A DNA stretch of 64,000 nt. Source: Patescibacteria group bacterium. Its GTDB lineage: Bacteria; Patescibacteriota; Patescibacteriia; GWA2-46-9. A model generated the notes under the pieces. It was given only the letters and a program-made list of their open reading frames with translations. It made no database searches and was not told the DNA's origin. Where the stretch lies: positions 64,835-128,834 of the forward strand of contig JBAZXG010000003.1 in the NCBI GenBank assembly GCA_041660005.1. Reading direction: 5' to 3'. A program made the translations under genes and the position numbers. Each line of letters starts with the position of its first letter. Position 1 is the first letter of the stretch. Positions 29,297-43,182 of the stretch are shown in pieces.

Positions 29297-29370
29297 TGGG
29301 GGATCGTCTAATGGTAGGACAGCGGCCTTTGAAGCCGTGAATCATGGTTCGAATCCATGTCCCCCAGCCA
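29297..29370 (+). tRNA. tRNA-Gln (anticodon UUG), CCA encoded
   Basis: TGGGGGA-TC-GTCT-AATGGTA-GGAC-A-GCGGC-CTTTGAA-GCCGT-GAAT-CATGG-TTCGAAT-CCATG-TCCCCCA-G-CCA. The U1-A72 pair is typical of bacterial tRNA-Gln. Confidence 0.92.
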
Positions 29371-29407
29371 AAAATCCTGGGCCCCCTTTACGGGGCTGAG
29401 GATTTTT
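29371..29407 (+). terminator. Hairpin terminator immediately after tRNA-Gln
   Basis: AAAATCCT-GG-GCCCC-CTTTAC-GGGGC-TG-AGGATTTT followed by T. Confidence 0.6.
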
Positions 29408-29418
29408 GATTGTAGGAG

Positions 29419-29681
29419 TATAATGGATTCGAACTTAGCATCACCCCGTGGCGGGTTTCTCGAGGGCCGAGGGGCCCTCGAAGTGGGGGTCGGGGTGAGG
29501 CGGTATGGTTCTAGGAGCTCCGCTAGCCGGCGGGGCGACGGAATCCTGTCCCCAGGTTGGAGATTTTTTGTTTGAGAGATACAATGAATTCGAAGCGGGA
29601 AGGTGTTCCGCCAGAGGCGGACAGGATGGGAAGCGAAGCGACTGGTTCTAGGCCCGTTTAACGGGCCGGAATCCATGTCCC
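29419..29681 (+). repeat. Two tandem GC-rich structured units carrying degraded copies of the tRNA-Gln 3' end
   Basis: Unit 1 is 29419-29553 and unit 2 is 29580-29681. Each reads TAyAAT-GrATTCGAA ... stable hairpin ... TGGTTCTAGG-hairpin-CGGAATCC(A)TGTCCC. Compare tRNA-Gln CATGGTTCGAATCCATGTCCCCCA. Confidence 0.6.
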
Positions 29682-29789
29682 TTCAACGAGCACCGGCGAA
29701 GTTGGTACAGAGCGCACCAGCGCGAATGTAATACTTTGCCAATGGACTATCTGCGTATAAGGCGGTTCGAATTGCTTGTTAATTGACCT

Positions 29790-30515
29790 ATGTTATTCAC
29801 GAAAAAAGAAATTTTAGATGAAATAAGACGTACCGCAGAAGAAAACGGGGGTATACCCTTAGGCATGGACAGGTTCAAAAAAGAAACTGGGATAGGCCCA
29901 TTTGACGTAAGCAGATATTGGCCACGCTTTGGTGATGCGATAAGTGAAGCTGGATTGACGCGAAACGAACGATGGACACGTTATTCTGACGATCTTTTAA
30001 TAGAGAAGTCAATTGAAAAAATAAGGAAGTATGGTAGGTACCCAACCTTGAATGAATTATTTGTGGAATTTAATCAGGGTGATGATTTTCCGTTTCACAT
30101 ATTCAAAAAACGTTCTCAACCTTACATGGTAAAGAAAATACTTGAATACTGTCATAGTAGAAACGGTTATGAAGATGTCATTCAGGCTTGTGAACCTATT
30201 CTTAAAAAATTGAACAGTAAGGATGACCTATATAGTGATACCAAAAAGACCGAAAAAATTGGTGAGGTTTATCTCTTTAAATCCGGTAAATACTATAAGA
30301 TTGGAAAAACAAATGATACCGTGCGACGTGGAAAAGAACTTCGAATTCAACTGCCTGAAAATTTAAAGCTAATTCATTCAATTAAAACTGATGACACAAG
30401 TGGTATTGAAACATATTGGCACAAAAGGTTTGAGGGTAAGAGGATGAACGGTGAATGGTTTGATTTAAGTGCAGCAGATATTAAATCCTTTAAAAGCTGG
30501 AGGCGTATAGCTTAG
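29790..30515 (+). CDS. GIY-YIG superfamily (T5orf172/MUG113-type) protein with two N-terminal homing-endonuclease-associated helical repeats
   Basis: N-terminal repeats KKEILDEIRRTAEENGGIPL...RFGDAISEAGL and a second degenerate copy. The C-terminus reads GEVYLFKSGKYYKIGKTNDTVRRGKEL...YWHKRFEGKRMNGEWFDL. Confidence 0.65.
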   Translation: MLFTKKEILDEIRRTAEENGGIPLGMDRFKKETGIGPFDVSRYWPRFGDAISEAGLTRNERWTRYSDDLLIEKSIEKIRKYGRYPTLNELFVEFNQGDDFPFHIFKKRSQPYMVKKILEYCHSRNGYEDVIQACEPILKKLNSKDDLYSDTKKTEKIGEVYLFKSGKYYKIGKTNDTVRRGKELRIQLPENLKLIHSIKTDDTSGIETYWHKRFEGKRMNGEWFDLSAADIKSFKSWRRIA

Positions 30516-30594
30516 GTTCATTTATTATCTTAAGGTAGGTTTCGCATTCCGAAGAGTATTGGATTAATTGTGCGTGTTTTAATGAAATTGTTAT

Positions 30595-31140
30595 ATGGAT
30601 GAGAAAAACGAAGAAAGACTAGCTCCAGATGGTCTGCCGAAGCATTTTAAGATTGAGTGGAATGAGCCATTTTCTGTCTCCACTGGATCAACACCAGGAT
30701 CGTATTCTTCTGTTTCGATTCCAGTTGATTCCACAAAGTTGAAATCGGCAAAAATAAACACAGGTGGTAGTGGCGGTGTGATATTCGAAGATACGCCAGT
30801 ATATAAGTTTAAAACTACAAATTTAAAAATTAAAGACGGTAACTCTTGGGCCCATGTACGTACAAAAGTTGATTCAAGGGGAGATTATATTGATGTAATT
30901 TTTGGAAATTCAATAAACCCTCGACATTCACACATAGGATTTGAATTATCAGCTCCGCTTTTTTTAGAAATGCGAAACAAAGGCACTATTAATACAGAAT
31001 CTGCCGCTGAGGAAGGTGTAGGAGTGACCGCAGGTTCGCTTAGCTTAAAGGATACTCCTACAGGGAAATTAGTAAGACTCGACTTCGCATTAAATCTAAG
31101 TAGTAATGAAATAGAGATAACTGATTTTATTTTTATTTAG
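30595..31140 (+). CDS. Hypothetical protein (cassette gene B)
   Basis: 181-aa soluble, beta-rich ORF in the low-GC block. No family recognised. Confidence 0.45.
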   Translation: MDEKNEERLAPDGLPKHFKIEWNEPFSVSTGSTPGSYSSVSIPVDSTKLKSAKINTGGSGGVIFEDTPVYKFKTTNLKIKDGNSWAHVRTKVDSRGDYIDVIFGNSINPRHSHIGFELSAPLFLEMRNKGTINTESAAEEGVGVTAGSLSLKDTPTGKLVRLDFALNLSSNEIEITDFIFI

Positions 31141-31152
31141 TGTTTAAAGACA

Positions 31153-31629
31153 ATGACAAATATAGCTTGGAATTTAAGAAGCATCGTAATTTATGAAAAA
31201 ATCACTAACAAAGAATCCGGAAATTCAGGAGAACAAGAGATTGTGGATCTTGTACCGTGTCCGAATTGCGGTAAGAAGTTGATGAAACTTCCCCCGAACT
31301 ATCCTTTATATGACGTTCAATGCACGGGGTGCTCTTTTCGTGCCCAAGTAAAGACAAACCAGAGCAAACCAAAGTCCGTCGTTTTTGGTGCAGGATGGCA
31401 AATTATGAACAAGGTGTTGAAGTCTGGTTATATGACACCGCCCCTATTTCTTAATTTTAAGTGGCTAGAAAAAAGCATTCAAAGACAGGAAGTCCGTTTT
31501 TATCCGTTTGTACCTAAAAAGAATCTCTCCAACTACCGTCTTTCTAATACAGCCAGACGCGCCAACTACGAAATGTTTACTTATACAGGGATGGACAAAC
31601 TTCCATATTTTTCAGTATTTAAAAAATGA
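31153..31629 (+). CDS. Zinc-ribbon PD-(D/E)xK-like nuclease, DpnI/Dam-replacing-family-like catalytic domain only (cassette gene C)
   Basis: CPNCGKKL...YDVQCTGCSFRAQVKT...GAGWQIMNKVL...PPLFLNF...LSNTARRANY is colinear with my recollection of the DpnI N-terminal domain. There is no winged-helix C-terminal domain. Confidence 0.5.
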   Translation: MTNIAWNLRSIVIYEKITNKESGNSGEQEIVDLVPCPNCGKKLMKLPPNYPLYDVQCTGCSFRAQVKTNQSKPKSVVFGAGWQIMNKVLKSGYMTPPLFLNFKWLEKSIQRQEVRFYPFVPKKNLSNYRLSNTARRANYEMFTYTGMDKLPYFSVFKK

Positions 31630-31662
31630 TAAGGTGTTTAGAAATTATAATTAGTGAATAAT

Positions 31663-32535
31663 ATGGATCAGTCTTCCGTGTTGGCTTTAGCAAGTTTATC
31701 AAAAGATATAGCACAGCTTAATTTAGGATACTTAGGAATATCAGTAGCAATTCTTGGTGCGCTTGGTGGGGTTTTTGTTTATTTTAACTTAAATCCCTTG
31801 AAAGAAAACTTAAGCAAACAAGAAAAGAAAATCGAAGATTTAAAAGCCGAAGCACACAGCTTATTAGATGAATCAAAAGTTCAATCTGAGAAAACACTTG
31901 AAGATTTTGCAATAAGTCAGTTTGATAAAACGAGCCTACTTCTTAAACAGCAAAAAAATGAAATTGACTTAGAGACAAAAAATAAGATACAAGATTCTCA
32001 TAGTTTGTTATCGGATAAAATTGAAAATATTTCAGAAAGTAAAGACCTGAAACTTAAAGAAATTATTCTTTCGGAGTCTAATAATAATTTAGCTATCCTA
32101 GACAAAAATCTAACCCTGAAAATTAGTACGACCAAAGAGGATGTTCTTAAAGAAATTAAGTTAGTGAATGCTGGGATAAATGCAAAAATTAAGGAATTAA
32201 GTGAAAAAGTCATAGAATTGCAGGTTTATAAATACAGTAAAGAAGGACAGATGGGTGCAATAATTTATTCTATTGAGTTGCTTGAAAATGCGATAGAAGA
32301 TTATTTTAAAACGAAAAAAGAACTTGTTAATAAGTTGGAAAATTCATCTGACGACAAGACGTTTGGGTGGAAAGTTAATTATAGGTTAGAGGGTTTAATA
32401 AAGGAAATTGGTGATTCCAAATTGGAGGAGGATGAAGTCAAAAAAATTCTTATACAAATATCAAAAATTGAAAATGAAAGTGTTTTTAAGGTTTTAGCTG
32501 GAGAACTTAAGAAAAAAGTTTTGTATAAAAATTGA
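31663..32535 (+). CDS. Single-pass membrane protein with long K/E-rich coiled coil (cassette gene D)
   Basis: TM helix LGYLGISVAILGALGGVFVYF, then about 240 aa of heptad-like K/E/L-rich sequence. GTG at 31654 is an alternative start. Confidence 0.5.
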   Translation: MDQSSVLALASLSKDIAQLNLGYLGISVAILGALGGVFVYFNLNPLKENLSKQEKKIEDLKAEAHSLLDESKVQSEKTLEDFAISQFDKTSLLLKQQKNEIDLETKNKIQDSHSLLSDKIENISESKDLKLKEIILSESNNNLAILDKNLTLKISTTKEDVLKEIKLVNAGINAKIKELSEKVIELQVYKYSKEGQMGAIIYSIELLENAIEDYFKTKKELVNKLENSSDDKTFGWKVNYRLEGLIKEIGDSKLEEDEVKKILIQISKIENESVFKVLAGELKKKVLYKN

Positions 32536-32590
32536 AGTTCCATTTTATCTGCAAACATACTAACTTGTAATAGATAATTTACCAATAAAT

Positions 32591-33538
32591 ATGGAAAATA
32601 TTGCAGAAAAATTCTTCAATTCCTTTACTAAAATGGAAGATATCGAAAAATTAATTAGCGAAGGAGAAACCGAAGGCCAATATCTAGAATGTAAAAGCCC
32701 TCAGGGTCCATATTTTGACAAAGGATTGAAATCACAGCTAGCAAAAGAACTCTCTGCTTTCGCTAATGCAGGTGGTGGGGTTATTTTATTTGGTGTTTCT
32801 ACCACAAAACATAAGCATTCTGAAACAGATGTTTTGTCTCAGATTGAAGAAGTGGGAGCAGTTAAAAAATTTAGAAAAGAACTTGACGTGATCACAACAA
32901 CCTTAATTGAACCATCTATAATATCTTGTAGGTCAAAAGTTATTTTTAGAAATCCTTCTGATTCTAGGGGAGTAGTAGTAACTTTTGTTCCTCCAACTCC
33001 TGGTGATCCAATTAGAAGTAACCTTGACCGTGAGTTTTATATAAGAATTGGGGATGATTCAAGCAAAATGCCATATGAAACCGTAAAAAAAATGTTTGCT
33101 GGGACAGCAGGTCCAGAATTATCAGCGTTGTTTAATGACAGATTAGTAAAGTTAGAAGGTGATGGATCATGGAAAATTCCAATAATTTTAAGTAACGAAT
33201 CTAGTGCTGCAGCCAAAGACACAGAAGTTTCAGTCACGGTAATAAATGGTAGTGCCTGTGAAACTATTAGTGGAGAAATCTTCAAGGATCAGTCAAATGT
33301 AAACCCTGGGTCAAAAGTATTTATGACTGATATCGATAAGCCAATTTTTAGGGGAAAGAACGTTGTGGTCGGCTATATAGTTGTAAAAATGAAAAAAGCA
33401 AAGTTTTATAAAAGAAATTTAAATCTCAAAATAGATATATTTGCTAGTAATATGAGGGCTAAAACATATACGATAACAATAAAACTCGCAAAAAAGGGCT
33501 TTTCTGTAATGAAAACTAAGTCTGAATATTTATACTAG
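32591..33538 (+). CDS. AlbA_2/Schlafen-type putative nucleic-acid-binding domain protein with unknown C-terminal domain (cassette gene E)
   Basis: EGETEGQYLECKSPQ...LAKELSAFANAGGGVILFGVS matches the AlbA_2 (PF04326-like) pattern as I recall it. The C-terminal ~170 aa are unassigned. Confidence 0.55.
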   Translation: MENIAEKFFNSFTKMEDIEKLISEGETEGQYLECKSPQGPYFDKGLKSQLAKELSAFANAGGGVILFGVSTTKHKHSETDVLSQIEEVGAVKKFRKELDVITTTLIEPSIISCRSKVIFRNPSDSRGVVVTFVPPTPGDPIRSNLDREFYIRIGDDSSKMPYETVKKMFAGTAGPELSALFNDRLVKLEGDGSWKIPIILSNESSAAAKDTEVSVTVINGSACETISGEIFKDQSNVNPGSKVFMTDIDKPIFRGKNVVVGYIVVKMKKAKFYKRNLNLKIDIFASNMRAKTYTITIKLAKKGFSVMKTKSEYLY

Positions 33539-33689
33539 GATCATACTCGAGGCGCTTTCTTTTGCCGTAACAAAAGAGTCAGCAATAACATTGTAAAGTA
33601 ACGAGTCAAAAGGTTAGTGCTCGAAAACGGCAGCAAAAATTCCTCCCTCCACGGTTGGAACTTTCCCCCTCGCGAGATACAATTTAAAC

Positions 33690-33935
33690 ATGCCTAAAAC
33701 AGCCCCATCTTTCACACATAAAGTTCCAGCGGACTTCCGAAGGGCTATTGGCTCTACCCCTCGCGCGAAAGCGGTATGGGATGATATCACTCCAATAGCA
33801 CGCAATGAGTGGATTTGCTGGGTAACATCCGGCAAAAAAGCCGAGACGCGAAATATCCGGATCGCAAAAGCACTTTCAAAACTAAGTGGAGGAATGCGCA
33901 GACCTTGCTGTTGGGCCAGCTGTCCGCACCGTTGA
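33690..33935 (+). CDS. YdeI/OmpD-associated family protein (short form)
   Basis: VPADFRRAIGSTPRAKAVWDDITPIARNEWICWVTSGKKAETRNIRIAKALSKL...RRPCCWASCPH is a typical YdeI C-terminal domain. Its GC is normal, unlike its neighbours. Confidence 0.7.
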   Translation: MPKTAPSFTHKVPADFRRAIGSTPRAKAVWDDITPIARNEWICWVTSGKKAETRNIRIAKALSKLSGGMRRPCCWASCPHR

Positions 33936-33973
33936 GAAAAACAGGTAAGTTTTCTGCCATAGTGGTAACAAAT

Positions 33974-34495
33974 ATGCAGCCCTATAGATTTAGTCCAATA
34001 GAAAATAAAGAACAGTTGTTAGAAGCTATAGAATATACGCATTTTAAATGTTTTGAGTTATGCAAAAAGAACTTTGGCAGATATCTTCCCGTTGCCGGTA
34101 ATATCGGAATATTTTCTCATTATGATGATGAGTATGAGTTTCTTACAAAGTTAAGAGAAGAACTAACTGAAAAGTCCGATAATTGGAACCATAAGTATTA
34201 CCGTCTTCTCGAGCCTATAAGAATTGCCGCAAAGGGTGATGTGCCTGATACTGTATATACTTATCTCTATATTCGTAAACCAGATAAGCATAAGGAAGTT
34301 GGCGATGTTGATTTTGTCTTGGGTCTCAATGAATTTAGTGAATTAAAAGACTCTTTACATCACAGCAAGGAAATCAAAGGTATAGAAGTATTCGACCGCG
34401 TTGACCTTGATCTAATTAAACTGTTCGACTCCGATACTGATGTCCTTTCTTTTATCGGGACGAAGAACATGACCGAAAATATACGACCATTATGA
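33974..34495 (+). CDS. Hypothetical protein
   Basis: ATG at 33974 inside ORF 33809..34495; the upstream part overlaps ydeI in another frame. Low GC. No family recognised. Confidence 0.4.
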   Translation: MQPYRFSPIENKEQLLEAIEYTHFKCFELCKKNFGRYLPVAGNIGIFSHYDDEYEFLTKLREELTEKSDNWNHKYYRLLEPIRIAAKGDVPDTVYTYLYIRKPDKHKEVGDVDFVLGLNEFSELKDSLHHSKEIKGIEVFDRVDLDLIKLFDSDTDVLSFIGTKNMTENIRPL

Positions 34496-34749
34496 CCCCA
34501 TACAAACACACGCAAATTGGATATCTGATGCTGGTTGTTACGTTTTGTGTGCTGGTGCTCTTCGCATGGGCGCAAATTACGGTTCGGCTTGAGCCGCCCT
34601 CTGCCGACTCTGGAGCAAATTTTGCCATTACTGCGATAATGGTATTAGTTCTGTTTATTGTAACCGATTTCCACCGTCAAAATAAGACCGGAATCATGTC
34701 CACGGGGGCTATGGCCTATACCGTGCTTATCCTCTTATTCTTGTGTTAG
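34492..34749 (+). pseudogene. Truncated duplicate of the 5' part of gene 36310..36774
   Basis: The first 168 nt (34492-34659) are about 89% identical to 36310-36477 by hand alignment with 18 mismatches. The reading frame then diverges and stops after 85 codons. Confidence 0.6.
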
Positions 34750-34779
34750 TTCCAATTATAGTATATAATTTAAACCAAA

Positions 34780-34799
34780 GGTACCCATATTTGGGTACC
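34780..34799. promoter_or_regulatory. Inverted repeat (candidate AbiEi operator) upstream of abiEi
   Basis: GGTACCCA-TATT-TGGGTACC, 48 nt upstream of the ATG at 34847 and just downstream of a TATAGTATATAAT stretch. Confidence 0.45.
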
Positions 34800-34846
34800 A
34801 ATATCGTACAAATCATCAATTTACTTGTAGTGAGCAAAGTCGCACT

Positions 34847-35494
34847 ATGGAAAAAGACTACATTTTAGACTTAATGAGATCAAAGAAGACTGTCTTTACT
34901 TTTAAAGACCTTATTTTGCTTTGGGGAGAATCTGACGTCAATTTTGTTAAGAAGAAGATTCATCGCTATGTTAAAGCTGGCAAAATGAACGCTGTACGCA
35001 GAGGCATTTACTCCAAAGATAAAAATTACGATAAATACGAGTTAGCTACAAAAATATATACTCCTTCATACGTCAGCATGGAGACGGCTTTAGGCGCGGC
35101 CGGAATTACTTTTCAGCTGTACGGGCAGATTTTTATTGCGTCATATACCACCAAAGAAATTGAGTGTGATGGGCAGAAATATTCTTATAAGAAAATAAAG
35201 GATACCATTCTCACCAATCAGGCTGGTATAGAGTCAAGAGAAAATTACAGTATCGCTTCGCGCGAAAGAGCATTTTTGGATGTTATCTATCTCAATAAGG
35301 ATTATCATTTTGATAATCTCTCGGCTTTGAATTGGGAAAAAGTATACGAAATCTTACCCATTTATCGTGGTAATAAACGTATGGCTAAGATGGTGAAAAT
35401 GTACCATAAAGCATTTTCTGCCGACTTGTCCGCCGAAGCCGCAGCGCAGGCGGGAGGAGGTCCGCCTCTAGCAGAAAGAATTCCAACTAGATAA
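34847..35494 (+). CDS. AbiEi-family type IV toxin-antitoxin antitoxin
   Basis: The N-terminal wHTH-like segment (FTFKDLILLWGESDVNFVKKKIHRYVKAGKMNAVRRGIYS) and its position directly upstream of an AbiEii gene support the call. Confidence 0.75.
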   Translation: MEKDYILDLMRSKKTVFTFKDLILLWGESDVNFVKKKIHRYVKAGKMNAVRRGIYSKDKNYDKYELATKIYTPSYVSMETALGAAGITFQLYGQIFIASYTTKEIECDGQKYSYKKIKDTILTNQAGIESRENYSIASRERAFLDVIYLNKDYHFDNLSALNWEKVYEILPIYRGNKRMAKMVKMYHKAFSADLSAEAAAQAGGGPPLAERIPTR

Positions 35495-35501
35495 TAATCA
35501 T

Positions 35502-36206
35502 ATGGCTCTTGATACCGCAAAGCATAAAAATGTTCTCATAAAAATCCTCAAGGATATCTATACTGACGCAACCATTAGTCCGATCTTAGGATTTAAGGGT
35601 GGGACAGCTGCTACATTTTTCTATAACCTCGACCGCTTCTCGGTGGATTTGGATTTTGATTTACTTGATTCAGACAAAGAGAACTACGTGTTTGGTCGTG
35701 TTAAAGCAATTATTGAGAATTATGGCAAATTAAAAGAGTCACGAAAGAAAAGATTCAATCTTTTTTATATTCTTTCTTATGACGACAAAGATATTAACGC
35801 CCAAAACGTCAAGGTAGAAATTAATCGCCGTGAATTCGGTTCAAAATATTCGGTGGAATCATTTCTTGGTATCTCGATGCAGGTGATGGTGAAAGAAGAT
35901 ATGGTTGCACATAAACTTTGTGCTATGTACGAACGGATTGGTAAGACGAATCGCGACATTTTTGATGTTCAGTTTTTCCTTTCGCACGACTGGCCTGTTA
36001 ATAAAAAAATTGTTGAGAATCGTACAGGTGTCTCGTATGCAGAATTTTTGAAAAAGTGTATTGATGTAATGGAAAAATTCGATGACAGCAATGTACTTTC
36101 CGGTATGGGTGAATTACTCACTGAGAAACAGAAAGCATGGGCAAAAACAAAGCTTAAGTCAGAGGCGTTGTTTTTGCTTAGGTTAGCTCTGGAGAAGGAA
36201 AAGTAA
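35502..36206 (+). CDS. AbiEii/AbiGii-family nucleotidyltransferase toxin (DUF1814)
   Basis: LGFKGGTAATFFYNLDRFSVDLDFDLLD is the characteristic GGTA...R.S.D.D motif block; 234 aa. Confidence 0.85.
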   Translation: MALDTAKHKNVLIKILKDIYTDATISPILGFKGGTAATFFYNLDRFSVDLDFDLLDSDKENYVFGRVKAIIENYGKLKESRKKRFNLFYILSYDDKDINAQNVKVEINRREFGSKYSVESFLGISMQVMVKEDMVAHKLCAMYERIGKTNRDIFDVQFFLSHDWPVNKKIVENRTGVSYAEFLKKCIDVMEKFDDSNVLSGMGELLTEKQKAWAKTKLKSEALFLLRLALEKEK

Positions 36207-36309
36207 ACTTATATGCCAAATATAATCGCCGACAAAACCAAAAAACAGACTTACTATAAGTGCACTTCACTCACTATCCTCGGCAATAAGGTGATCACAG
36301 AATAGATTT

Positions 36310-36774
36310 ATGACTTCCTACAAACACACGCAAATTGGATATTTGATGCTGGTTGTCACGTTTTGTGTGCTGATGCTTTTCGCATGGGCTCAAATTACGG
36401 CCCGGCTTGAGCCACCCTCTGTCGACTCTGGAGCAAATTTTGCCGTTACGAGCATCATGGTATTAGTTCTGTTTATTCTTTCATCATTTGCGACGCTCAC
36501 AGTGTCGATTGATGAAAATTATCTTCGAGTTAAATTTGGCTATGGTATTTTCGCCAGGAAGTTTGAATTGAATCAGATAGCTTCAGTTAAAACAGTAAAG
36601 AATCACTGGTACTACGGATGGGGGATAAGGTTGTGGTTCTGGCCCAAAATGTGGATTTTTAATGTTTCCGGTTTTGATGCAGTCGAGCTCGTTATGAAAA
36701 ATGGAAAAATCTACCGCATAGGAACAGACGTTCCAGGAGAGCTTGAGACTGCGATCAAAGCGGTGTTAAAGTAA
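36310..36774 (+). CDS. Small membrane protein (two TM helices plus a soluble C-terminal domain), intact paralogue of 34492..34749
   Basis: 154-aa ORF beginning MTSYKHTQIGYLMLVVTFCVLMLFAWAQI, with a C-terminal beta-rich domain. No family recognised. Confidence 0.55.
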   Translation: MTSYKHTQIGYLMLVVTFCVLMLFAWAQITARLEPPSVDSGANFAVTSIMVLVLFILSSFATLTVSIDENYLRVKFGYGIFARKFELNQIASVKTVKNHWYYGWGIRLWFWPKMWIFNVSGFDAVELVMKNGKIYRIGTDVPGELETAIKAVLK

Positions 36775-36783
36775 TTTGGAATT

Positions 36784-37203
36784 GTGCCCACCAATAAACA
36801 AAAAATTCTAGAGTTCATCAAAGCACATCATATTGCCGTTGTTGCCACGACGGATACTGAAAAACCTGAAGCAGCAGTTGTTGAGTACGGCGAGACCGAT
36901 GAACTGGAACTCATTATTGATACCTTCATTTCTTCACGAAAGAGCAAAAATATTTTGCATAACCCAAACGTCGCTCTTGTCATCGGTTGGGACAATAACA
37001 TAACCCTTCAGTATGAAGGTGAGGCGACCGAACTAAAAGGTAGTGAGCTAGAAAAAAGCAAGGAGATATATTTTAAAAAGAACCCGCGTGCAAAAGAGTG
37101 GGACGGTCGTGAAGGAATAGTATATTTTAAAATCATTCCAAAATGGATCCGATATTCTGATTTGAATAAACACCCATGGGAAGTTTTTGAGATCAATCTA
37201 TAA
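36784..37203 (+). CDS. Pyridoxamine 5'-phosphate oxidase family (FMN-binding split barrel) protein
   Basis: IAVVATTDTEKPEAAVVEYG...NPNVALVIGWDNNITLQYEGEA...YFKIIPKWIRYSD fits the PNPOx-like pattern. GTG start. Confidence 0.65.
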   Translation: MPTNKQKILEFIKAHHIAVVATTDTEKPEAAVVEYGETDELELIIDTFISSRKSKNILHNPNVALVIGWDNNITLQYEGEATELKGSELEKSKEIYFKKNPRAKEWDGREGIVYFKIIPKWIRYSDLNKHPWEVFEINL

Positions 37204-37282
37204 ATGATTACTGGGTTATTAAACCTCTTTGATTTAGTACAATTTACAGGGTACACTCAGTTTCGATTGATAGGGTCAAAAT

Positions 37283-38215
37283 ATGATTGAAAAAAGAGGA
37301 CAATTTAATCCAGAGGTAAAGCTACCACCCGAAACTGAAAGCGACATGGCTTCAATTCGTTTGGAATTCTTTCGCCATGACGATAAAGAATCTGAAGCAG
37401 GTGACCCTTCGGTTCGTCTATCTCAACGTGGTCGGGTACATGCCACCGAAGCTGGCCTAACTAAAAATGCGCACGCGGAAGTCGCTTTAGCTTATGGCTC
37501 GTTAAAGGATAGAACAGCCGAAACAGCATTGCGACATGCGTTGGCGCGGCGAGAGGAAATTCAGCCAACGCACTCTTTGGAGGATATTCAGAGAATTGTT
37601 GATCAAGAATTAAATGTTGGGAAAAAAGGTAAAAAACTTATTAAAAACAGAGTATTACCGCAATTAAATTTGAATAATCGTGGTACGGCGCAATATCGTC
37701 AACAGTGGTTGCAGCACTACAAAGAAAGTAAGGATGCCTTGCGGTTTGTTTATCACGATAGTGATCGGTTAGCACAAGAGTTAAATGACAAAAAATCAAC
37801 TTCTTATTCCCGAGCAGCTGGTAATGTGGCTGAGTTAATTCAAAAGTATATTGGCATCCTGCCACGCTGGCAGGAAATTGTTAAACAGAATCCCGATAAG
37901 TACAAAAGATTCCGCGATGAGTTGCAGAGGTTTTTTTGTTCTCATCACGCCGTATTAGAGCCGTTCTTAATGAAAGTTATTGAACGGACCGAAGGGGAAG
38001 AGGGGGTTGAAAAATTTATTGAGTCGTTGCCAAACAAAAATGGGTTTGGTTTAAGTGAAGGTTATTCGGTTACCATAACAGGGCACGATGGTCAGCCCAC
38101 TGTTACTTTAAAGTACGGCGACAAGGAGTGGGTTATACCGACAGAAATGGTGAACGAAATTGTTCGAGAAAGAGATGAATTCAATCATCTGATAGATAAT
38201 AAATCTTCAGTATGA
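37283..38215 (+). CDS. Hypothetical protein, possible divergent histidine-phosphatase-superfamily member
   Basis: N-terminal IRLEFFRHDDKES...LSQRGRVHATEAG resembles the RHG...LT.G..QA motif block. The remaining ~200 aa are unassigned. Confidence 0.35.
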   Translation: MIEKRGQFNPEVKLPPETESDMASIRLEFFRHDDKESEAGDPSVRLSQRGRVHATEAGLTKNAHAEVALAYGSLKDRTAETALRHALARREEIQPTHSLEDIQRIVDQELNVGKKGKKLIKNRVLPQLNLNNRGTAQYRQQWLQHYKESKDALRFVYHDSDRLAQELNDKKSTSYSRAAGNVAELIQKYIGILPRWQEIVKQNPDKYKRFRDELQRFFCSHHAVLEPFLMKVIERTEGEEGVEKFIESLPNKNGFGLSEGYSVTITGHDGQPTVTLKYGDKEWVIPTEMVNEIVRERDEFNHLIDNKSSV

Positions 38216-38742
38216 AATTTATTTTTGTAAGGCACGGAGAAACGGATTGGAACAAAAAAGGTTTGTTGCAAGGTCATAATGACACAGAGTTAAACAAAAC
38301 GGGCATACAACAAGCGGTTCAGTTGTTGCCCACTCTGGAAAAATATCATTTTGACGTTATATACTCGTCATCCCTAAAACGTGCTTACGAAACAGCAAAA
38401 ATAATAAGTAATCACTTTAATGTGCCCATAATTATCAGCGATCACCTAAAAGAAAAGAATTTTGGCTCACTTGCGGGTAAAAGCTGGCAAGAAAACAGCG
38501 AAGCGACAGGAAAAGATTTAAAAACTATCGATCGGCGTCAGCAGTACGACTATAGTCCATATGGTGGCGAAACAGCAGAGGAAGTTAAGGCAAGAGTTAA
38601 AAAGTTTATTGAAGAGGTAAAAATAAGCGGTTACAAACAACCATTGGTTATTAGTCACGGAGGTATCATTAGAGTGTTGCGTCCTTATTCCGATGAGGTA
38701 CCGAAAGTTATGAATGCCTCGGTTCATCAATTTGATCTTTAG
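38212..38742 (+). CDS. Histidine phosphatase family protein (phosphoglycerate-mutase-like)
   Basis: FIFVRHGETDWNKKGLLQGHNDTELNKTGIQQA...SSSLKRAYETA...VISHGGIIR is canonical. The ATGA start overlaps the upstream stop. Confidence 0.85.
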   Translation: MKFIFVRHGETDWNKKGLLQGHNDTELNKTGIQQAVQLLPTLEKYHFDVIYSSSLKRAYETAKIISNHFNVPIIISDHLKEKNFGSLAGKSWQENSEATGKDLKTIDRRQQYDYSPYGGETAEEVKARVKKFIEEVKISGYKQPLVISHGGIIRVLRPYSDEVPKVMNASVHQFDL

Positions 38743-38751
38743 TGAATAATA

Positions 38752-39210
38752 ATGCGTACCATTAACCGAGACATCGTTTCTGTTTTGTTGCTTTCCAAAG
38801 AGGGTAAGTTACTTATTGGGCTGCAGTCTTTAAATGAATATAATGTTTACCCAGGATGTTGGGGTATTATCGGCGGAGGTGTCGACAACGGTGAAGACCA
38901 AAGAACTGCACTTAATCGCGAAGTATTAGAAGAGTCTGGTGTTGATATTCAAAAATACCATGCGGAGTTGATTGATGTAGCCGGTGGTGAAGCAGAAAAA
39001 ACTTTAAGAAACACGAATGAACGCGTTCTTGTAAAAATGAAGTTCCATGTTTACAGGGTCGTCATGGACGATAAAAACTCAAACGATATCACGGTAACGT
39101 TAAACGATGAGCACTCTGCATATCAGTGGCTATATTCATCTGAATTGAGTCAATTAAAACTTGCGCCTCCATCAGAAGCTTTATTTAAAAAACTTGGATA
39201 TTTGCAATAG
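38752..39210 (+). CDS. NUDIX hydrolase
   Basis: Nudix box GGGVDNGEDQRTALNREVLEESGV (G-x5-E-x7-REVxEExG). Confidence 0.85.
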   Translation: MRTINRDIVSVLLLSKEGKLLIGLQSLNEYNVYPGCWGIIGGGVDNGEDQRTALNREVLEESGVDIQKYHAELIDVAGGEAEKTLRNTNERVLVKMKFHVYRVVMDDKNSNDITVTLNDEHSAYQWLYSSELSQLKLAPPSEALFKKLGYLQ

Positions 39211-39221
39211 TGTAATTATCA

Positions 39222-39509
39222 ATGATCTCCCTACTCAAAAAACCGAGTGCCTGGATTCCAATAGTTATTCCGCTACTCTTTTTTGCCTATATAGTTATTG
39301 CAATTTCTTTTTTTGAAATAGTGCGAGAGAAAGACGAAGGAGTTGGTGCGCACCTTTTTCAGTTGTGGCTCCTCATTGAACCGTTTATGGTTGGATATTT
39401 TGCTATTCGTTGGTTGCCGCGTGCACCGAAACAAGCAGTTACGATTCTAGTCATTCAGGTTCTCGCTGCACTTTTGCCTATATCAACAGTTTTCGCTTTT
39501 AAGCTATAA
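39222..39509 (+). CDS. Small membrane protein, hypothetical
   Basis: 95-aa ORF with three hydrophobic helices. Confidence 0.4.
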   Translation: MISLLKKPSAWIPIVIPLLFFAYIVIAISFFEIVREKDEGVGAHLFQLWLLIEPFMVGYFAIRWLPRAPKQAVTILVIQVLAALLPISTVFAFKL

Positions 39510-39520
39510 AGAACGAAACT

Positions 39521-40348
39521 ATGAAAGTTCTGTTACTCGGAGCAAATAGTTATGTCGGTTCACGAGTTTATTTAGAACTAAAAAAGGATCATGAAGTAGT
39601 TGGCACATTTCACAACAAAAAACTTTTTACGAATCTCGTCTTTCTTGATGTTACCGATAGGCAAGCGGTAATGGATCTTATTATTAAAGAAAAACCGAAC
39701 GTAATCGTTCACTGTGCAAATCAGGCGAGTAATAGGTGGTGCGAAGAACATTTAGAAGATGCCGTTAAGATTAATCGGGAGGCAACAAAATTTATTGTAG
39801 AGGGGGCGAATATTGTTGACTCAAAAGTAATTTATGTTTCTTCCTTCGCGGCGATTTCTCCGACTAACTTGTATGGAATAATGAAAGAGGAGTCAGAACG
39901 GATGATTAAAACGGTTCGTTCGGGTTACGCAATAATCCAGCCGGGGGTAATAGTTGGTATTAGTCCAAAGATAAAAAAGGAAGATGGATTTTTTAGTTCT
40001 CTTATGGAAAATTTAAATGACAATAAGCCGGCCGAGTATGACAATATCAAAAAGTATCAACCAACCTATTTGGGTCATATTTGCGAAGTAATCAAGTTGA
40101 TTTTAGAAAGAGGTCTTTGGAATAAAACATTTCCCGTAGCATCACTAGGCGTTAAAACAAAGTATGAATTAGCAAAAGACATCTTATCTCCTTTTGGAAT
40201 AACAGTAGAAGAAGTTGAAGGTAGTCACACGATTACTAAGAAAAAGACACAAGGCCTAAAGGAACTAAACGAATCGAGTCTGCCGGTCTACACATATATG
40301 CAGACCATTGAGAAGGTTGTCGAAGAAATTAAAGCCAGTAACTGTTGA
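39521..40348 (+). CDS. NAD-dependent epimerase/dehydratase (extended SDR, RmlD-like)
   Basis: N-terminal Rossmann MKVLLLGANSYVGSRVY and a YxxxK-type region (NLYGIMKEESE). Confidence 0.65.
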   Translation: MKVLLLGANSYVGSRVYLELKKDHEVVGTFHNKKLFTNLVFLDVTDRQAVMDLIIKEKPNVIVHCANQASNRWCEEHLEDAVKINREATKFIVEGANIVDSKVIYVSSFAAISPTNLYGIMKEESERMIKTVRSGYAIIQPGVIVGISPKIKKEDGFFSSLMENLNDNKPAEYDNIKKYQPTYLGHICEVIKLILERGLWNKTFPVASLGVKTKYELAKDILSPFGITVEEVEGSHTITKKKTQGLKELNESSLPVYTYMQTIEKVVEEIKASNC

Positions 40349-40351
40349 ACT

Positions 40352-40963
40352 ATGAAAATCTTCCTCGCCACAACCAACGGTGGGAAAATTGAGCGGCTTA
40401 CGAAACTACTAAAACAGATCAACGTAGACATTGAAGTTTATACTCCGGCAGATTTACACATAGAAATTCCCGAAATTGTGGAAACTGGAAAATCTTTACT
40501 CGAGAATGCAAAGACTAAGGCCCGCGCATATTTTGGCAAAGTTCAAATGCCTATTCTTGCAAACGACACAGGTTTTTATGTAGAGGGGGAGGGGTTCATT
40601 GATGCGCCTAAACGGGAAGCGCTTGGAGAGGCCAGCGAGGGTACGTTGTCCTTAGAAGAGATCTCTAAAAAAATGGCAGATTTTTGGAAAGGTATAGCCA
40701 TTAAACACGGCGGCAAAGTAGACGCGTCATGGATTGAATCTTTTGTGGTTCTCTACCAGGACGGCACAATGAAAGAAGCTGAGTCCCGTAGAGATGTTGT
40801 TTTGACGAACCAAGAGTTTGGTACACCGCACGTACAAATGCCGGTACGTGCCCTCTATTACTCAAAAGTCACTAATAAACCCGCCATTCAACATACTAAA
40901 GAAGAGGAGATTCAAGAGATGAAGCCGATCATAGATGCTTTAGTCAATGTGTTAGAATATTGA
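40352..40963 (+). CDS. Non-canonical purine NTP pyrophosphatase (Ham1/RdgB/ITPase family)
   Basis: MKIFLATTNGGKIERL...ETGKSLLENAKTKA...DTGFYV is a Ham1-like pattern. Confidence 0.65.
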   Translation: MKIFLATTNGGKIERLTKLLKQINVDIEVYTPADLHIEIPEIVETGKSLLENAKTKARAYFGKVQMPILANDTGFYVEGEGFIDAPKREALGEASEGTLSLEEISKKMADFWKGIAIKHGGKVDASWIESFVVLYQDGTMKEAESRRDVVLTNQEFGTPHVQMPVRALYYSKVTNKPAIQHTKEEEIQEMKPIIDALVNVLEY

Positions 40964-41029
40964 TTTTGGAAGCGTAGGGATGGTATTTGGCGCTTGACAG
41001 TAAATAACCGTTGTATATACTATAGATAT

Positions 41030-41305
41030 ATGAAAACTATTATCAACGTGAAAGCAGATAGGGACACAAAAATTAAAGCGCAACGTTTAGCAAAAGAGCT
41101 TGGATTACCTCTAAGCGTTGTTATTAACCAGTATTTAAAGGACTTTATACAGCAGGGTAAAATTACATTTTCGCAACCCTTGATGCCAAATACCAGAACT
41201 CGAAAGATGCTTGATCGGGTATTGGCTGACATCAAGAAAGGTAAGAATGTATCTCAGAGCTTTAACAATGCAAAGGATTTGATTGCTGACTTAAGAAAGA
41301 AGTAA
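41030..41305 (+). CDS. RelB/DinJ-family type II antitoxin
   Basis: ATG at 41030 in ORF 40994..41305. MKTIINVKADRDTKIKAQRLAKELGLPLSVVINQYLKDF is a ribbon-helix-helix DinJ pattern. The stop overlaps the toxin start. Confidence 0.75.
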   Translation: MKTIINVKADRDTKIKAQRLAKELGLPLSVVINQYLKDFIQQGKITFSQPLMPNTRTRKMLDRVLADIKKGKNVSQSFNNAKDLIADLRKK

Positions 41306-41565
41306 TGTTGGTGCGTTATCACCGAGACTTTAAGAAGCAGTTTCAGAAATTAACTTTAAAGCAACAAAGCCAGTTTGATGAAAGGTTGGCCATTTTTAGC
41401 AATGATCCTTTTGCGTCGCAGTTGAATAATCATTCATTGCGGGGTGTTTACCAGGGCTGTCGCAGTATAAATATTTCCGGTGATCTACGAGTGATCTATG
41501 TTGCTGACAATGAAGGCGTTGCGTTACTTATAGCCATTGGAACGCATAGCCAGCTTTATGGGTAG
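41305..41565 (+). CDS. RelE/YafQ-family type II toxin (mRNA interferase)
   Basis: 86 aa with FKKQFQKL...HSLRGVYQGCRSINISGDLRVIY...IGTHSQLY, the typical RelE/YafQ pattern. Confidence 0.8.
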   Translation: MLVRYHRDFKKQFQKLTLKQQSQFDERLAIFSNDPFASQLNNHSLRGVYQGCRSINISGDLRVIYVADNEGVALLIAIGTHSQLYG

Positions 41566-41567
41566 CT

Positions 41568-42113
41568 ATGATTAAAGTTGTAACTGTTCATGGCAGGTTC
41601 CAGCCGCCGCTACATAAGAATCACTGGAACTATATTAAAGCAGCTTTTGGCGTTGCAGAAAAAGTTATTATTCTTATCACTAACCCCAACCTGTCTGAAA
41701 AAGCTGTACCTGAAGCTGAACACAGAAATAAAGCTGATAATAATCCGTTGTCGTACGATGAGAGAGTAAAAATCTTTAAATCTTTTTTTGACAACATTGG
41801 CATCGCAAAAAATAGGTATGAATTCAAACCTTTTGATATTACCGACGAGAAGGAGTGGAGGAAGTTAGACAAGGGCACTCCAAATATGGTTAACGTGTAT
41901 AGTGACTGGAGTAATTCGAAGCTAGAAAAATTTAAAACACATGATCTTAAGGTTATTCGACTAGATCTTCAGCCGTTGGACGGTGTATCTGGAACACGTA
42001 TTCGTGAAATAATCTGGCGAAATATTGACGCATCTCAGATGCGAAATGAGTTGTTAAAAGCAGGGTATATGGAAGAAGCAATTCCAGGTCTTTTTGAAGT
42101 ATTGGGTTATTAG
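41568..42113 (+). CDS. Cytidylyltransferase-fold nucleotidyltransferase, NMN adenylyltransferase-like
   Basis: VHGRFQPPLHKNH (variant of GRFQP.H.GH) and a C-terminal SGTRIRE (ISSTxxR-like) motif. Confidence 0.55.
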   Translation: MIKVVTVHGRFQPPLHKNHWNYIKAAFGVAEKVIILITNPNLSEKAVPEAEHRNKADNNPLSYDERVKIFKSFFDNIGIAKNRYEFKPFDITDEKEWRKLDKGTPNMVNVYSDWSNSKLEKFKTHDLKVIRLDLQPLDGVSGTRIREIIWRNIDASQMRNELLKAGYMEEAIPGLFEVLGY

Positions 42114-42135
42114 TAAGAAGTGATATAATACTTCT

Positions 42136-43182
42136 ATGACAAACACTCAAAACAATCTTCATAGTTTCTGGCAGCGCACCTCGTGGCTTACGGTTATATT
42201 GGCAATTTTAACGGTTGTTACTTTCATTGCTGTATCGAACCCGGGTGTTCGATATGCGGTGCAACTCGGAACGCGAGGAGTAATGATGGAAAATGCAGGT
42301 AGCTCAGGGGCGGTGCCTTCGGTGCCTGCTGATGTTTCAACGAAGAGTATTGATGGATTGAACTATCCCGAACAAGGCATGATGGATTTGAGTTATCCGT
42401 ATCCATACCAAAATCCTGATGTACCAGTGACCGATACGCGTGAACTCATGAAAACCTATTACAGCGCGTCAATGAGGACTCGCGACGTGCAAGGTCTCAC
42501 GCGACGCGTTGAAACAACGGTTCGTGGGTACAGTGGGCGGATAGATCAGCAAGCAAGTTCGCCAAAATACGGTTTCATTAGTTTTTCCGTACCGCAGAGT
42601 AAGTACGACGCATTCCGAACCGAACTTGAAAGTATGGTTGGTAGCCGTTTCCTCACAGTTAATATCTCATCTCAAAATCTTTTACCGCAGAAGCTAAGTA
42701 TTGAGGAACAACAAACGCAGGCCGACAAGGCCCTAGCGGATTACACTATGGCACGTGAAGATATTACAACCGCGCATACAGCTGCCGTGCAATCCCTGCA
42801 GTCGAAAATTGACGACGATGAACAGCAATTGATTGCACTTCGAGCCAAACCAGAAACACCAAAAATACTGGCAGAGATACAGGCGGTGTCGAGTGACTTG
42901 GCATTACAGAAAAGGCGGCTCGATAGTGAAAACGCTTTGTATTCGACGCGTCTAAAAAACGCTGATAGGAATATTAAGTTTGCAGAGGATCGGCAAAAGG
43001 CAGTTCAAACGCAAGATAAGACACTACTGGACAACGTTGCAACGGTAACCGGCATCGTTTCTGTTCAATGGATTAGTTTGTGGAATACTGTTCTGCTCTA
43101 TCTACCCGGTTACTCAATTCCATCAATTTTTGCCGTACTGACGATTTTTTCAGTTGTTTGGGACCGCCGAAAACTTAGCTAG
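42136..43182 (+). CDS. DUF4349-like membrane-anchored protein
   Basis: N-terminal TM helix, a central domain plus coiled coil, and C-terminal TM helices. The architecture and the YYSASMRTRDVQGLTRRVETTVRGYSGRI segment resemble DUF4349. Confidence 0.45.
   Translation: MTNTQNNLHSFWQRTSWLTVILAILTVVTFIAVSNPGVRYAVQLGTRGVMMENAGSSGAVPSVPADVSTKSIDGLNYPEQGMMDLSYPYPYQNPDVPVTDTRELMKTYYSASMRTRDVQGLTRRVETTVRGYSGRIDQQASSPKYGFISFSVPQSKYDAFRTELESMVGSRFLTVNISSQNLLPQKLSIEEQQTQADKALADYTMAREDITTAHTAAVQSLQSKIDDDEQQLIALRAKPETPKILAEIQAVSSDLALQKRRLDSENALYSTRLKNADRNIKFAEDRQKAVQTQDKTLLDNVATVTGIVSVQWISLWNTVLLYLPGYSIPSIFAVLTIFSVVWDRRKLS

Follow-up and report, generated by a model that had tools for sequence, protein, structure and literature searches.

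How did an AbiE toxin-antitoxin/abortive-infection operon come to lie between two diverged copies of the 5′ end of one gene? The question is raised by a 64,000-nt stretch of a Patescibacteria metagenome-assembled genome (MAG) contig (JBAZXG010000003.1), hereafter the window, in whose positions all coordinates are given. Here, we compare this AbiE module with 133 related cassette loci, drawn from 53 species-representative genomes and 80 metagenome contigs. From these sequence comparisons, we conclude that the module is an acquired mobile cassette, a promoter-plus-operon unit without a mobility gene of its own. We consider it fairly probable that the cassette arrived by horizontal transfer and was inserted 168 nt into a gene for a membrane/PH-like protein, most likely via homology to a divergent allele of that gene. 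By the same comparisons, the module is a bona fide AbiE-family cassette already covered by PADLOC models; its arrival is ordinary gene acquisition and not a new kind of system, and the mildly novel aspects are limited to recurrent diverged gene-fragment repeats and a compact conserved candidate operator.

Results

The two copies form the sole long repeat between 33 and 38 kb of the window (34490-34659 and 36308-36477; 170 nt and 89% identity in a repeat search). In pairwise alignment, homology sets in 2 nt 5′ of each start codon and breaks off abruptly at the end of codon 56. An initial annotation of this locus had described 168 nt at about 89% identity with 18 mismatches, and repeat search, alignment and recount returned the same values; over the 168 coding nt, the mismatches extend from position 6 to position 147, and no stretch of more than 24 nt is the same in both copies. 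The right copy, identified by repeat search and alignment, is the 5′ end of an intact gene (36310-36774) for a 154-aa protein with two transmembrane helices and a PH-like domain, identical to NCBI WC817_03035. The left copy holds the stranded first 56 codons of a membrane/PH-like gene (alignment; 85% identity over 60 aa by tblastn). The list of open reading frames (ORFs) bears out the earlier statement that the left ORF is truncated to 85 codons (34492-34749) and that the right one is intact at 154 codons. In the 85-codon ORF, the 56 gene codons run into 29 codons from filler and promoter DNA; the 29-residue tail has no match among the membrane-gene homologues, and its final two sense codons are supplied by the −35 hexamer of the abiE promoter. 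Therefore, we regard this ORF as an accidental fusion. Immediately 5′ of the left copy lies a conserved Patescibacteria gene (33944-34495; ORF list) encoding 173-183 aa without a Pfam domain and with 455 homologues at 61-98% identity. Its TGA stop codon overlaps the ATG of the left fragment (ATGA, read from the sequence), and by this overlap the left junction looks native. All of these elements, as well as the promoter, leader segment, abiEi, abiEii and third-gene remnant described below, are on the + strand.

Between the copies, the initial annotation had placed only AbiEi, AbiEii and an inverted repeat. These three are indeed there, but the inventory omitted an 80-nt filler (34660-34739), for which no relatives were found, and a decayed zinc-ribbon gene. 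As delimited by alignment, the inserted DNA is 34660-36307 and comprises the filler and a three-gene cassette. The first gene, abiEi (34847-35494), encodes a predicted antitoxin/repressor of 215 aa with a full-length match to PADLOC PDLC02255 (4.8e-59, covering residues 3-185), and 22 further PADLOC AbiEi models match. After a 7-nt gap, abiEii (35502-36206) follows on the same strand, an order kept in 60 full-length related loci. It encodes a 234-aa DUF1814 nucleotidyltransferase toxin, as indicated by Pfam PF08843 (57.8 bits against a gathering cutoff of 22.5; 2e-15), PADLOC PDLC02324 (6.1e-76) and the nearest solved structure, JHP933 (PDB 4o8s; 1.6e-10). AbiE toxins have catalytic motifs I-IV (hG[GS], R..DhD, KLxAaxxR and +DxxD), and mutation of these motifs abolishes toxicity in Streptococcus agalactiae (PMC3985639). 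In comparison with that work, all four catalytic motifs are present here, at G33G34; R45 and D49-L-D51; K138-L-C-A-M-Y-E-R145; and R151-D-I-F-D155, and S47 stands two residues before D49 of motif II. Motifs I and II are spaced by 14 residues in the window protein, and the spacing is given as x = 15 for AbiEii/DUF1814 (PMC3985639).

The third cassette gene survives as a remnant (36213-36305) with an internal deletion of ~100 nt, recognized by alignment with eight intact copies. Intact, it is found 3′ of abiEii in about a dozen loci and encodes a 63-aa DUF7695 zinc-ribbon protein (the copy at locus L080 matches Pfam PF24749 at 1.7e-11); the remnant aligns to its first 18 codons, its last ~7 codons and its stop codon, and the bases at the right junction were traced to its 3′ end. 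Four nucleotides separate the stop codon of the remnant, TAG (36303-36305), from the start codon of the intact membrane gene, and a scan found no terminator-like site on the + strand between abiEii and that gene. The membrane gene would, thus placed, now be the fourth cistron of the abiE operon and would be transcribed together with it. A weak inverted match of 34829-34846 to 36259-36275, also reported initially, did not hold up: it is unconserved in relatives, and its two arms fall in an optional leader segment and in the coding part of the zinc-ribbon remnant. It was dropped as candidate terminal inverted repeats and is most likely a chance match.

The distribution of its relatives supports the earlier proposal that the toxin-antitoxin cassette was acquired by recombination or insertion within this gene. 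AbiEii proteins with 76-92% identity, and DNA with ~77-91% identity, are found in MAGs of Levyibacteriota, Doudnabacteria, Moraniibacteriota, Paceibacterota, Saccharibacteria and others. The 75 loci with at least 200 nt of upstream sequence fall into 51 clusters without detectable upstream similarity, and the ORF list contains no recombinase between the repeats of the window. The unrelated contexts and the lack of a recombinase together lead us to conclude that the cassette probably moves without a mobility gene of its own. It extends from the −35 box through abiEii, sometimes with the zinc-ribbon gene: similarity to every relative begins at the −35 box, and the 3′ edge falls at the abiEii stop codon or inside or after the zinc-ribbon gene. 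The membrane gene is present in the flanks of 0/133 cassette loci. Carriage by phages was rejected, since a scan of IMG/VR found no viral contig with a relative of the cassette.

The sequences of the two copies indicate how they diverged. Both have F18 and C19, which occur in 0/118 homologues, as well as V53 (5/118) and L33 (13/118), and they are identical to each other at 50/56 residues and to any other homologue at no more than 48/56. Based on the shared F18 and C19 and on these identities, the copies are sister alleles. In a Nei-Gojobori analysis, synonymous divergence (dS) is 0.32 and nonsynonymous divergence (dN) is 0.06, i.e., dN/dS is 0.19, and neutrality is rejected (p = 0.001). Pooling four coding repeat pairs (window, L123, L024 and L110), with a TCC-to-AGC change of a serine codon and a frame-preserving indel in L123 among their differences, gives a ratio of nonsynonymous to synonymous differences (pN/pS) of 0.25 (neutral p = 4e-6). 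This selective signature favors the idea that the copies diverged while both were functional genes and were brought together afterward. Therefore, recombination with a divergent allele is favored over a fresh target duplication, in agreement with the initial annotation, which had read the 11% divergence in the same way. Duplication in situ, in which a long staggered break or template switching creates identical 170-nt copies that later drift apart, would leave the stranded copy neutral; however, a model with one neutral branch is disfavored by the synonymous bias of the window pair alone (p = 0.034), and the half-neutral model is disfavored by that of the pooled pairs (p = 0.007). Moreover, a dS of 0.32 would imply a very old event, yet the 56 gene codons of the fusion ORF contain neither frameshift nor stop codon. 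While the variable flanking repeats (26-170 nt) at several loci resemble irregular target duplications, we consider this origin improbable.

The low dN/dS and the dS of 0.32 fit two functional paralogues equally well. In such an ancient tandem paralogy, two full-length copies would have diverged under selection, and an AbiE fragment would have inserted illegitimately, deleting the 3′ part of the first copy and the intergenic region. That the copies are each other's closest relatives and that the left copy has a native-looking overlap with the upstream gene speak for this scenario. However, no second copy of the membrane gene lies within ±6 kb of it in either of two independent contexts that were inspected, and the window contains no further copy. 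In addition, fragments of other genes flank the cassette elsewhere (42 nt in L024, 84 nt in L123 and 133 nt in L110), each of which would require its own pre-existing paralogue. We therefore regard tandem paralogy as an unlikely source of the two alleles.

Flanking repeats are present around the cassette at several other loci. They measure 84 nt at L123 and 42 nt at L024, in both cases from the 3′ end of the upstream gene, 133 nt at L110, about 200 nt with deletions at L013, 36 nt at L101 and 26 nt at L008. As in the window, these repeats are diverged fragments of a nearby host gene, and they surround the cassette together with variable extra DNA. Flank-to-flank repeats were detected at 5/33 cassette loci, compared to 0/122 pseudo-inserts in the same loci and 0/110 in the window (hypergeometric p ~2e-5, which is approximate because the control positions overlap). 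The length of the repeats and their distance to the cassette differ from locus to locus, which points to imprecise homology-assisted events and not to a site-specific mechanism. A site-specific element, with the repeats as attL/attR or with defined ends acted on in trans by a recombinase or transposase, would fit the sharp common 5′ edge at the −35 box in at least 51 contexts, and also the tRNA-Gln gene 5 kb upstream and the low-GC defense-like island. By contrast, no integrase or transposase is encoded between the repeats or among the Pfam-scanned neighbors, several of which are without a family match; the 170-nt repeats are only 89% identical, and their length (26-170 nt) and distance vary by locus; conserved terminal inverted repeats or an end motif are lacking, the 3′ edge is ragged and viral contigs do not carry the cassette. 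A site-specific origin is, in our judgment, very unlikely.

The two alleles could also have met only in the assembly, if alleles of two strains had been wrongly joined in the MAG contig, on either side of an AbiE contig binned with them. In run SRR18595301, Logan contigs recover window positions 29342-34542 at 99.94%, ending 51 nt into the left allele, and, with 100% identity, positions 34852-36622, from abiEi to 145 nt past the right repeat, and 36594-42203. The right junction, which lies within the contig covering 34852-36622, is thus seen in a second, independent assembly. The breaks at 34542, 34852 and 36594-36622, with the left junction missing, are compatible with a mis-join, as are three clustered mismatches of contig L061 just 5′ of the left copy. 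However, contig L146 (100%) runs from abiEi through abiEii and the zinc-ribbon remnant into the right copy and continues for 145 nt past it; L061 enters the left copy by 51 nt and there matches the left and not the right allele; and the copies share no identical run longer than 24 nt. We see hardly any likelihood that the arrangement is an assembly artifact. Over 5201 positions, L061, which represents the same strain in another assembly, has only three differences from the window. They cluster in a 7-nt segment (L061:5142-5148 versus window 34483-34489; CGACCATT versus CAAACAAT) that belongs to the final codons of the upstream gene, immediately 5′ of the left ATG, and may reflect a strain polymorphism or the boundary of a recombination tract.

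The promoter of the cassette was identified by alignment and by information content over 68 unique loci (34741-34769). It consists of a −35 box (34741-34746), which is TTGTGT in the window and TTGCGY in relatives, a 17-nt spacer and a perfect −10 box, TATAAT (34764-34769); a generic promoter scan missed it, as the −35 box of the window fits at only 3/6 positions. Ten nt after the −10 box, at ~+4 to +23 from the predicted transcription start, begins a perfect palindrome, GGTACCCA-TATT-TGGGTACC (34780-34799). This element, GGTACCCATATTTGGGTACC, is unique in the window, where 0 matches are expected by chance. It is present in 84/133 loci, with 47 perfect copies, and is retained at only ~57% AbiEii identity. 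Information content across the 68 unique sequences peaks at the −35 and −10 boxes and is highest at the two 8-nt palindrome arms, which are near-invariant, and the 4-nt spacer is variable (TATT, AATA, CATT, AAAA and others). The palindrome is thus the most conserved non-coding element of the cassette and, therefore, a credible putative AbiEi operator. An RNA hairpin in the 5′ untranslated region was considered and is disfavored: changes in the arms are few and seldom compensatory, both G-T and A-C occur among the one-sided ones, and the core GTACCCA/TGGGTAC has been retained as sequence. The conservation of the arms rather favors recognition by a symmetric protein dimer. The initial annotation had placed an AbiEi operator here by analogy to Streptococcus; the expected position, just 3′ of the perfect −10 box and at the most conserved element, was borne out, while a Streptococcus-like architecture was not, as the window has one 8-N4-8 palindrome. 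In the alignment of relatives, about half of the cassettes have a 24-nt leader segment, TACTTGTAGTGAGCAAAGTCGCAC (34822-34845), which follows the operator and precedes the abiEi start codon; in L014 it is tandemly duplicated.

Some variation among the relatives concerns the C terminus of AbiEi. The last ~25 residues of the window protein (DNA 35417-35490) form a GC-rich variable tail, and among loci this tail is hypervariable, with proteins of 191-215 aa. In the window, L069, L110 and L111, a Gly/Ala/Ser-rich extension of ~20 residues, encoded by GC-rich DNA, replaces the common ...KKNLK end. The reading of segment 35417-35490 as an insertion of a repeat element was dropped; it occurs once in the window, but it is homologous to the hypervariable AbiEi tail of L069, L110 and L111.

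Other variation concerns the 3′ junction. At other loci, type I HsdM genes and a PLD-type gene (identified by N-terminal resemblance) also follow the zinc-ribbon gene through a "stop-ATTT-ATG" junction. In L085:4710-5925, L079, L017, L070, L018 and L009, a type I HsdM or type III Mod gene follows the cassette at a distance of 4 nt, and in L070 and L009 the first 7-8 zinc-ribbon codons are fused in frame to a type III Mod and an HsdM-like gene (again by N-terminal resemblance). This arrangement suggests that AbiE heads restriction-modification operons and that the zinc-ribbon gene decays repeatedly. The cassette of L013, labeled as uncultured Gammaproteobacteria, is 87% identical to those of Patescibacteria and has neighbors typical of Patescibacteria; the label is probably a binning error.

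The 154-aa membrane protein has 3733 homologues with a typical length of 155 aa, which are 73-85% identical across several Patescibacteria classes and whose genes lie in non-syntenic "grab-bag" neighborhoods of small enzymes and toxin-antitoxin pairs. The membrane protein (36310-36774) and the upstream protein (33944-34495) are both 65-85% identical across Patescibacteria classes, in unrelated neighborhoods, and this unusually high conservation suggests a widely exchanged accessory gene pool. An insertion hotspot at codon 56 was rejected, as inspection of the truncated homologues P0122, P0153, P0158, P0147 and P0174 gave no second case; the contig of P0122 (L059) is full of frameshifts, and the truncation of P0158 (L060) is due to another gene in convergent orientation. 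Two upstream-gene homologues were tried as candidates for an empty site or donor, of which P0175 is the same strain and P0176 has a different neighborhood. Among relatives of the membrane gene, which apart from the same strain reach at most 85% identity, none with tandem paralogues was found. Look-ups of P0002 and P0121 returned nothing.

Farther upstream, a low-GC (0.28-0.39), defense-like island extends over 29790-34495, directly after tRNA-Gln (29297-29370), and no integrase was seen in it. The island encodes a T5orf172/MUG113 protein (29790-30515) followed by a 181-aa protein, a DpnI-like protein (31153-31629) followed by a 293-aa coiled-coil protein, a Schlafen AlbA_2 protein (32591-33538) and an OmdA-like ORF (33690-33935). 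Between tRNA-Gln and the island, a GC-rich (0.54) non-coding stretch (29371-29800) contains two look-alike units, each after a TATAAT/TACAAT-GAATTCGAA motif, and a sub-threshold Rfam match at 29437-29543 to the Actinomyces-1 RNA (RF02928; 28.5 bits against a gathering cutoff of 39.1, E 0.016). This stretch may be a pair of small structured RNAs.

Discussion

We suggest that an AbiE cassette, consisting of promoter, operator, abiEi, abiEii and a decaying DUF7695 gene, entered a conserved membrane/PH-like gene for which the cell would have had a resident copy. Entry could have occurred either by one homologous crossover and one illegitimate joint or by a Campbell-type single crossover of a circularized fragment. 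On the left, the first 56 codons of one allele would have been stranded and fused to junk while still overlapping the upstream stop codon. On the right, the intact gene would have been reconstituted 4 nt behind the last stop codon of the cassette. An illegitimate joint would be expected at a few bases of microhomology. On the right, TTATG is common to the target, CATTATGAC, and to the consensus of the cassette ends, TAA-ATTT-ATG, and at the left border (34659/34660) the adjoining filler is without a match. By inference from its family, AbiEii, as a DUF1814 nucleotidyltransferase, would cause growth arrest, probably through modification of tRNA 3′ ends, and would be neutralized by AbiEi. An AbiEi dimer would also repress the operon by binding, through a DNA-binding domain at its N terminus, to the 8-N4-8 palindrome overlapping the transcription start.

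Several observations weigh against this interpretation. First, neither an empty site, nor a donor arrangement with abiE beside the membrane gene, nor a circular form was found, and apart from the same strain the closest membrane-gene homologue is only 85% identical and in non-syntenic contexts. Second, the 80-nt filler has no significant match in 146 loci or in the rest of the window, and the left junction (34543-34851) was not recovered among the SRR18595301 Logan contigs and, thus, has single-assembly support. Third, 28/33 loci have no flanking repeat, such that duplication is not obligatory on insertion, and at L013 a 3′ fragment lies left of the intact gene, a misfit with a simple one-anchor scheme. 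Fourth, the low dN/dS could in part stem from selection on the 85-codon fusion ORF or from a bias introduced by aligning only the conserved part. Finally, AbiEi has no Pfam match and no PDB sequence match, it scores 29.1 bits with NCBIfam TAA_AbiEi, below the cutoff of 150, and, in contrast to the two 23-bp repeats spaced by 3 bp in S. agalactiae, the candidate operator here is a single 20-bp 8-N4-8 element.

The cassette resembles the AbiE systems of S. agalactiae and Lactococcus lactis plasmid pNP40 in the abiEi-abiEii order, in DUF1814 motifs I-IV with a Ser/Thr two residues before the motif II Asp, in an antitoxin recognized by AbiEi hidden Markov models, in an inverted repeat over the transcription start and in carriage on mobile DNA. 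In those systems, the DUF1814 toxin is paired with a COG5340 antitoxin/repressor. The cassette differs from them in the frequently attached DUF7695 gene and the Patescibacteria host, and its activity is a predicted one. The AbiEi of S. agalactiae binds two 23-bp inverted repeats that are 3 bp apart and overlap the transcription start (PMC3985639; PMC7319586). The S. agalactiae toxin is longer, and catalytic residues are found ~16-40 positions earlier in the window protein (G33 versus G49, D152 versus D192). AbiE is classed as type IV; a 2026 preprint proposes type VII, with T65 as phospho-acceptor in S. agalactiae (bioRxiv 10.64898/2026.01.19.700257). S47 before D49 in the window toxin may correspond to T65 before D67 in S. 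agalactiae, as a positional analogy only.

DUF1814 toxins have been linked to tRNA 3′-end nucleotidylation (bioRxiv 10.64898/2026.01.19.700257), and the tRNA mechanism suggested above for AbiEii is borrowed by analogy from MenAT and Rv2827c-Rv2826c of Mycobacterium tuberculosis. The latter share with AbiE the toxin superfamily and antitoxin autoregulation via promoter-overlapping inverted repeats; in M. tuberculosis, however, the antitoxin is larger, there is negative cooperativity and the 23-bp repeats come in two pairs, and only distant sequence similarity is expected between the systems.

Displacement of modules in type VI secretion systems (T6SS), Rhs and contact-dependent inhibition (CDI) systems leaves stranded fragments and has been attributed to homology-facilitated illegitimate recombination (PMC5361080). 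The window shares with the effector-immunity modules of the Vibrio cholerae T6SS and with orphan Rhs/CDI modules the anchoring of a conflict module in a conserved neighboring gene and the stranded resident fragment (PMC5361080). However, in those systems the anchor belongs to the same functional system and fragments form arrays, whereas here it is an unrelated accessory gene with one fragment, and natural transformation is assumed. Integrative elements that bring a replacement end for their target gene, such as phages or islands with att sites in tRNA or protein genes, likewise produce a direct repeat of a gene end around the insert, with the gene intact on one side. Unlike them, the window has no integrase, its 170-nt repeat is 89% identical, and repeat length and position vary by locus.

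As a more speculative extension, which we put forward tentatively, AbiE, with or without the DUF7695 gene, might be a recombinase-free hitch-hiking module that spreads among Patescibacteria lineages by natural DNA uptake and uses fragments of shared conserved accessory genes as portable homology arms. If true, this would explain the diverged partial duplications of different host genes in ~10-15% of contexts. It would also explain why the cassette repeatedly lies 4 nt before the ATG of a restriction-modification methylase, PLD-type or membrane gene, which would come under the AbiEi-controlled promoter.

The locus leaves the knowledge of how AbiE acts unchanged. It provides a clean, dated-looking scar of defense-gene acquisition in an uncultured, reduced-genome lineage in which the biology of mobile elements is poorly known. 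Together with its relatives, it also defines one AbiE cassette common to distant Patescibacteria groups at 80-90% DNA identity, including its promoter and a compact candidate operator. Finally, it hints that homology to shared accessory genes, and not dedicated recombinases, may move defense modules among Patescibacteria.

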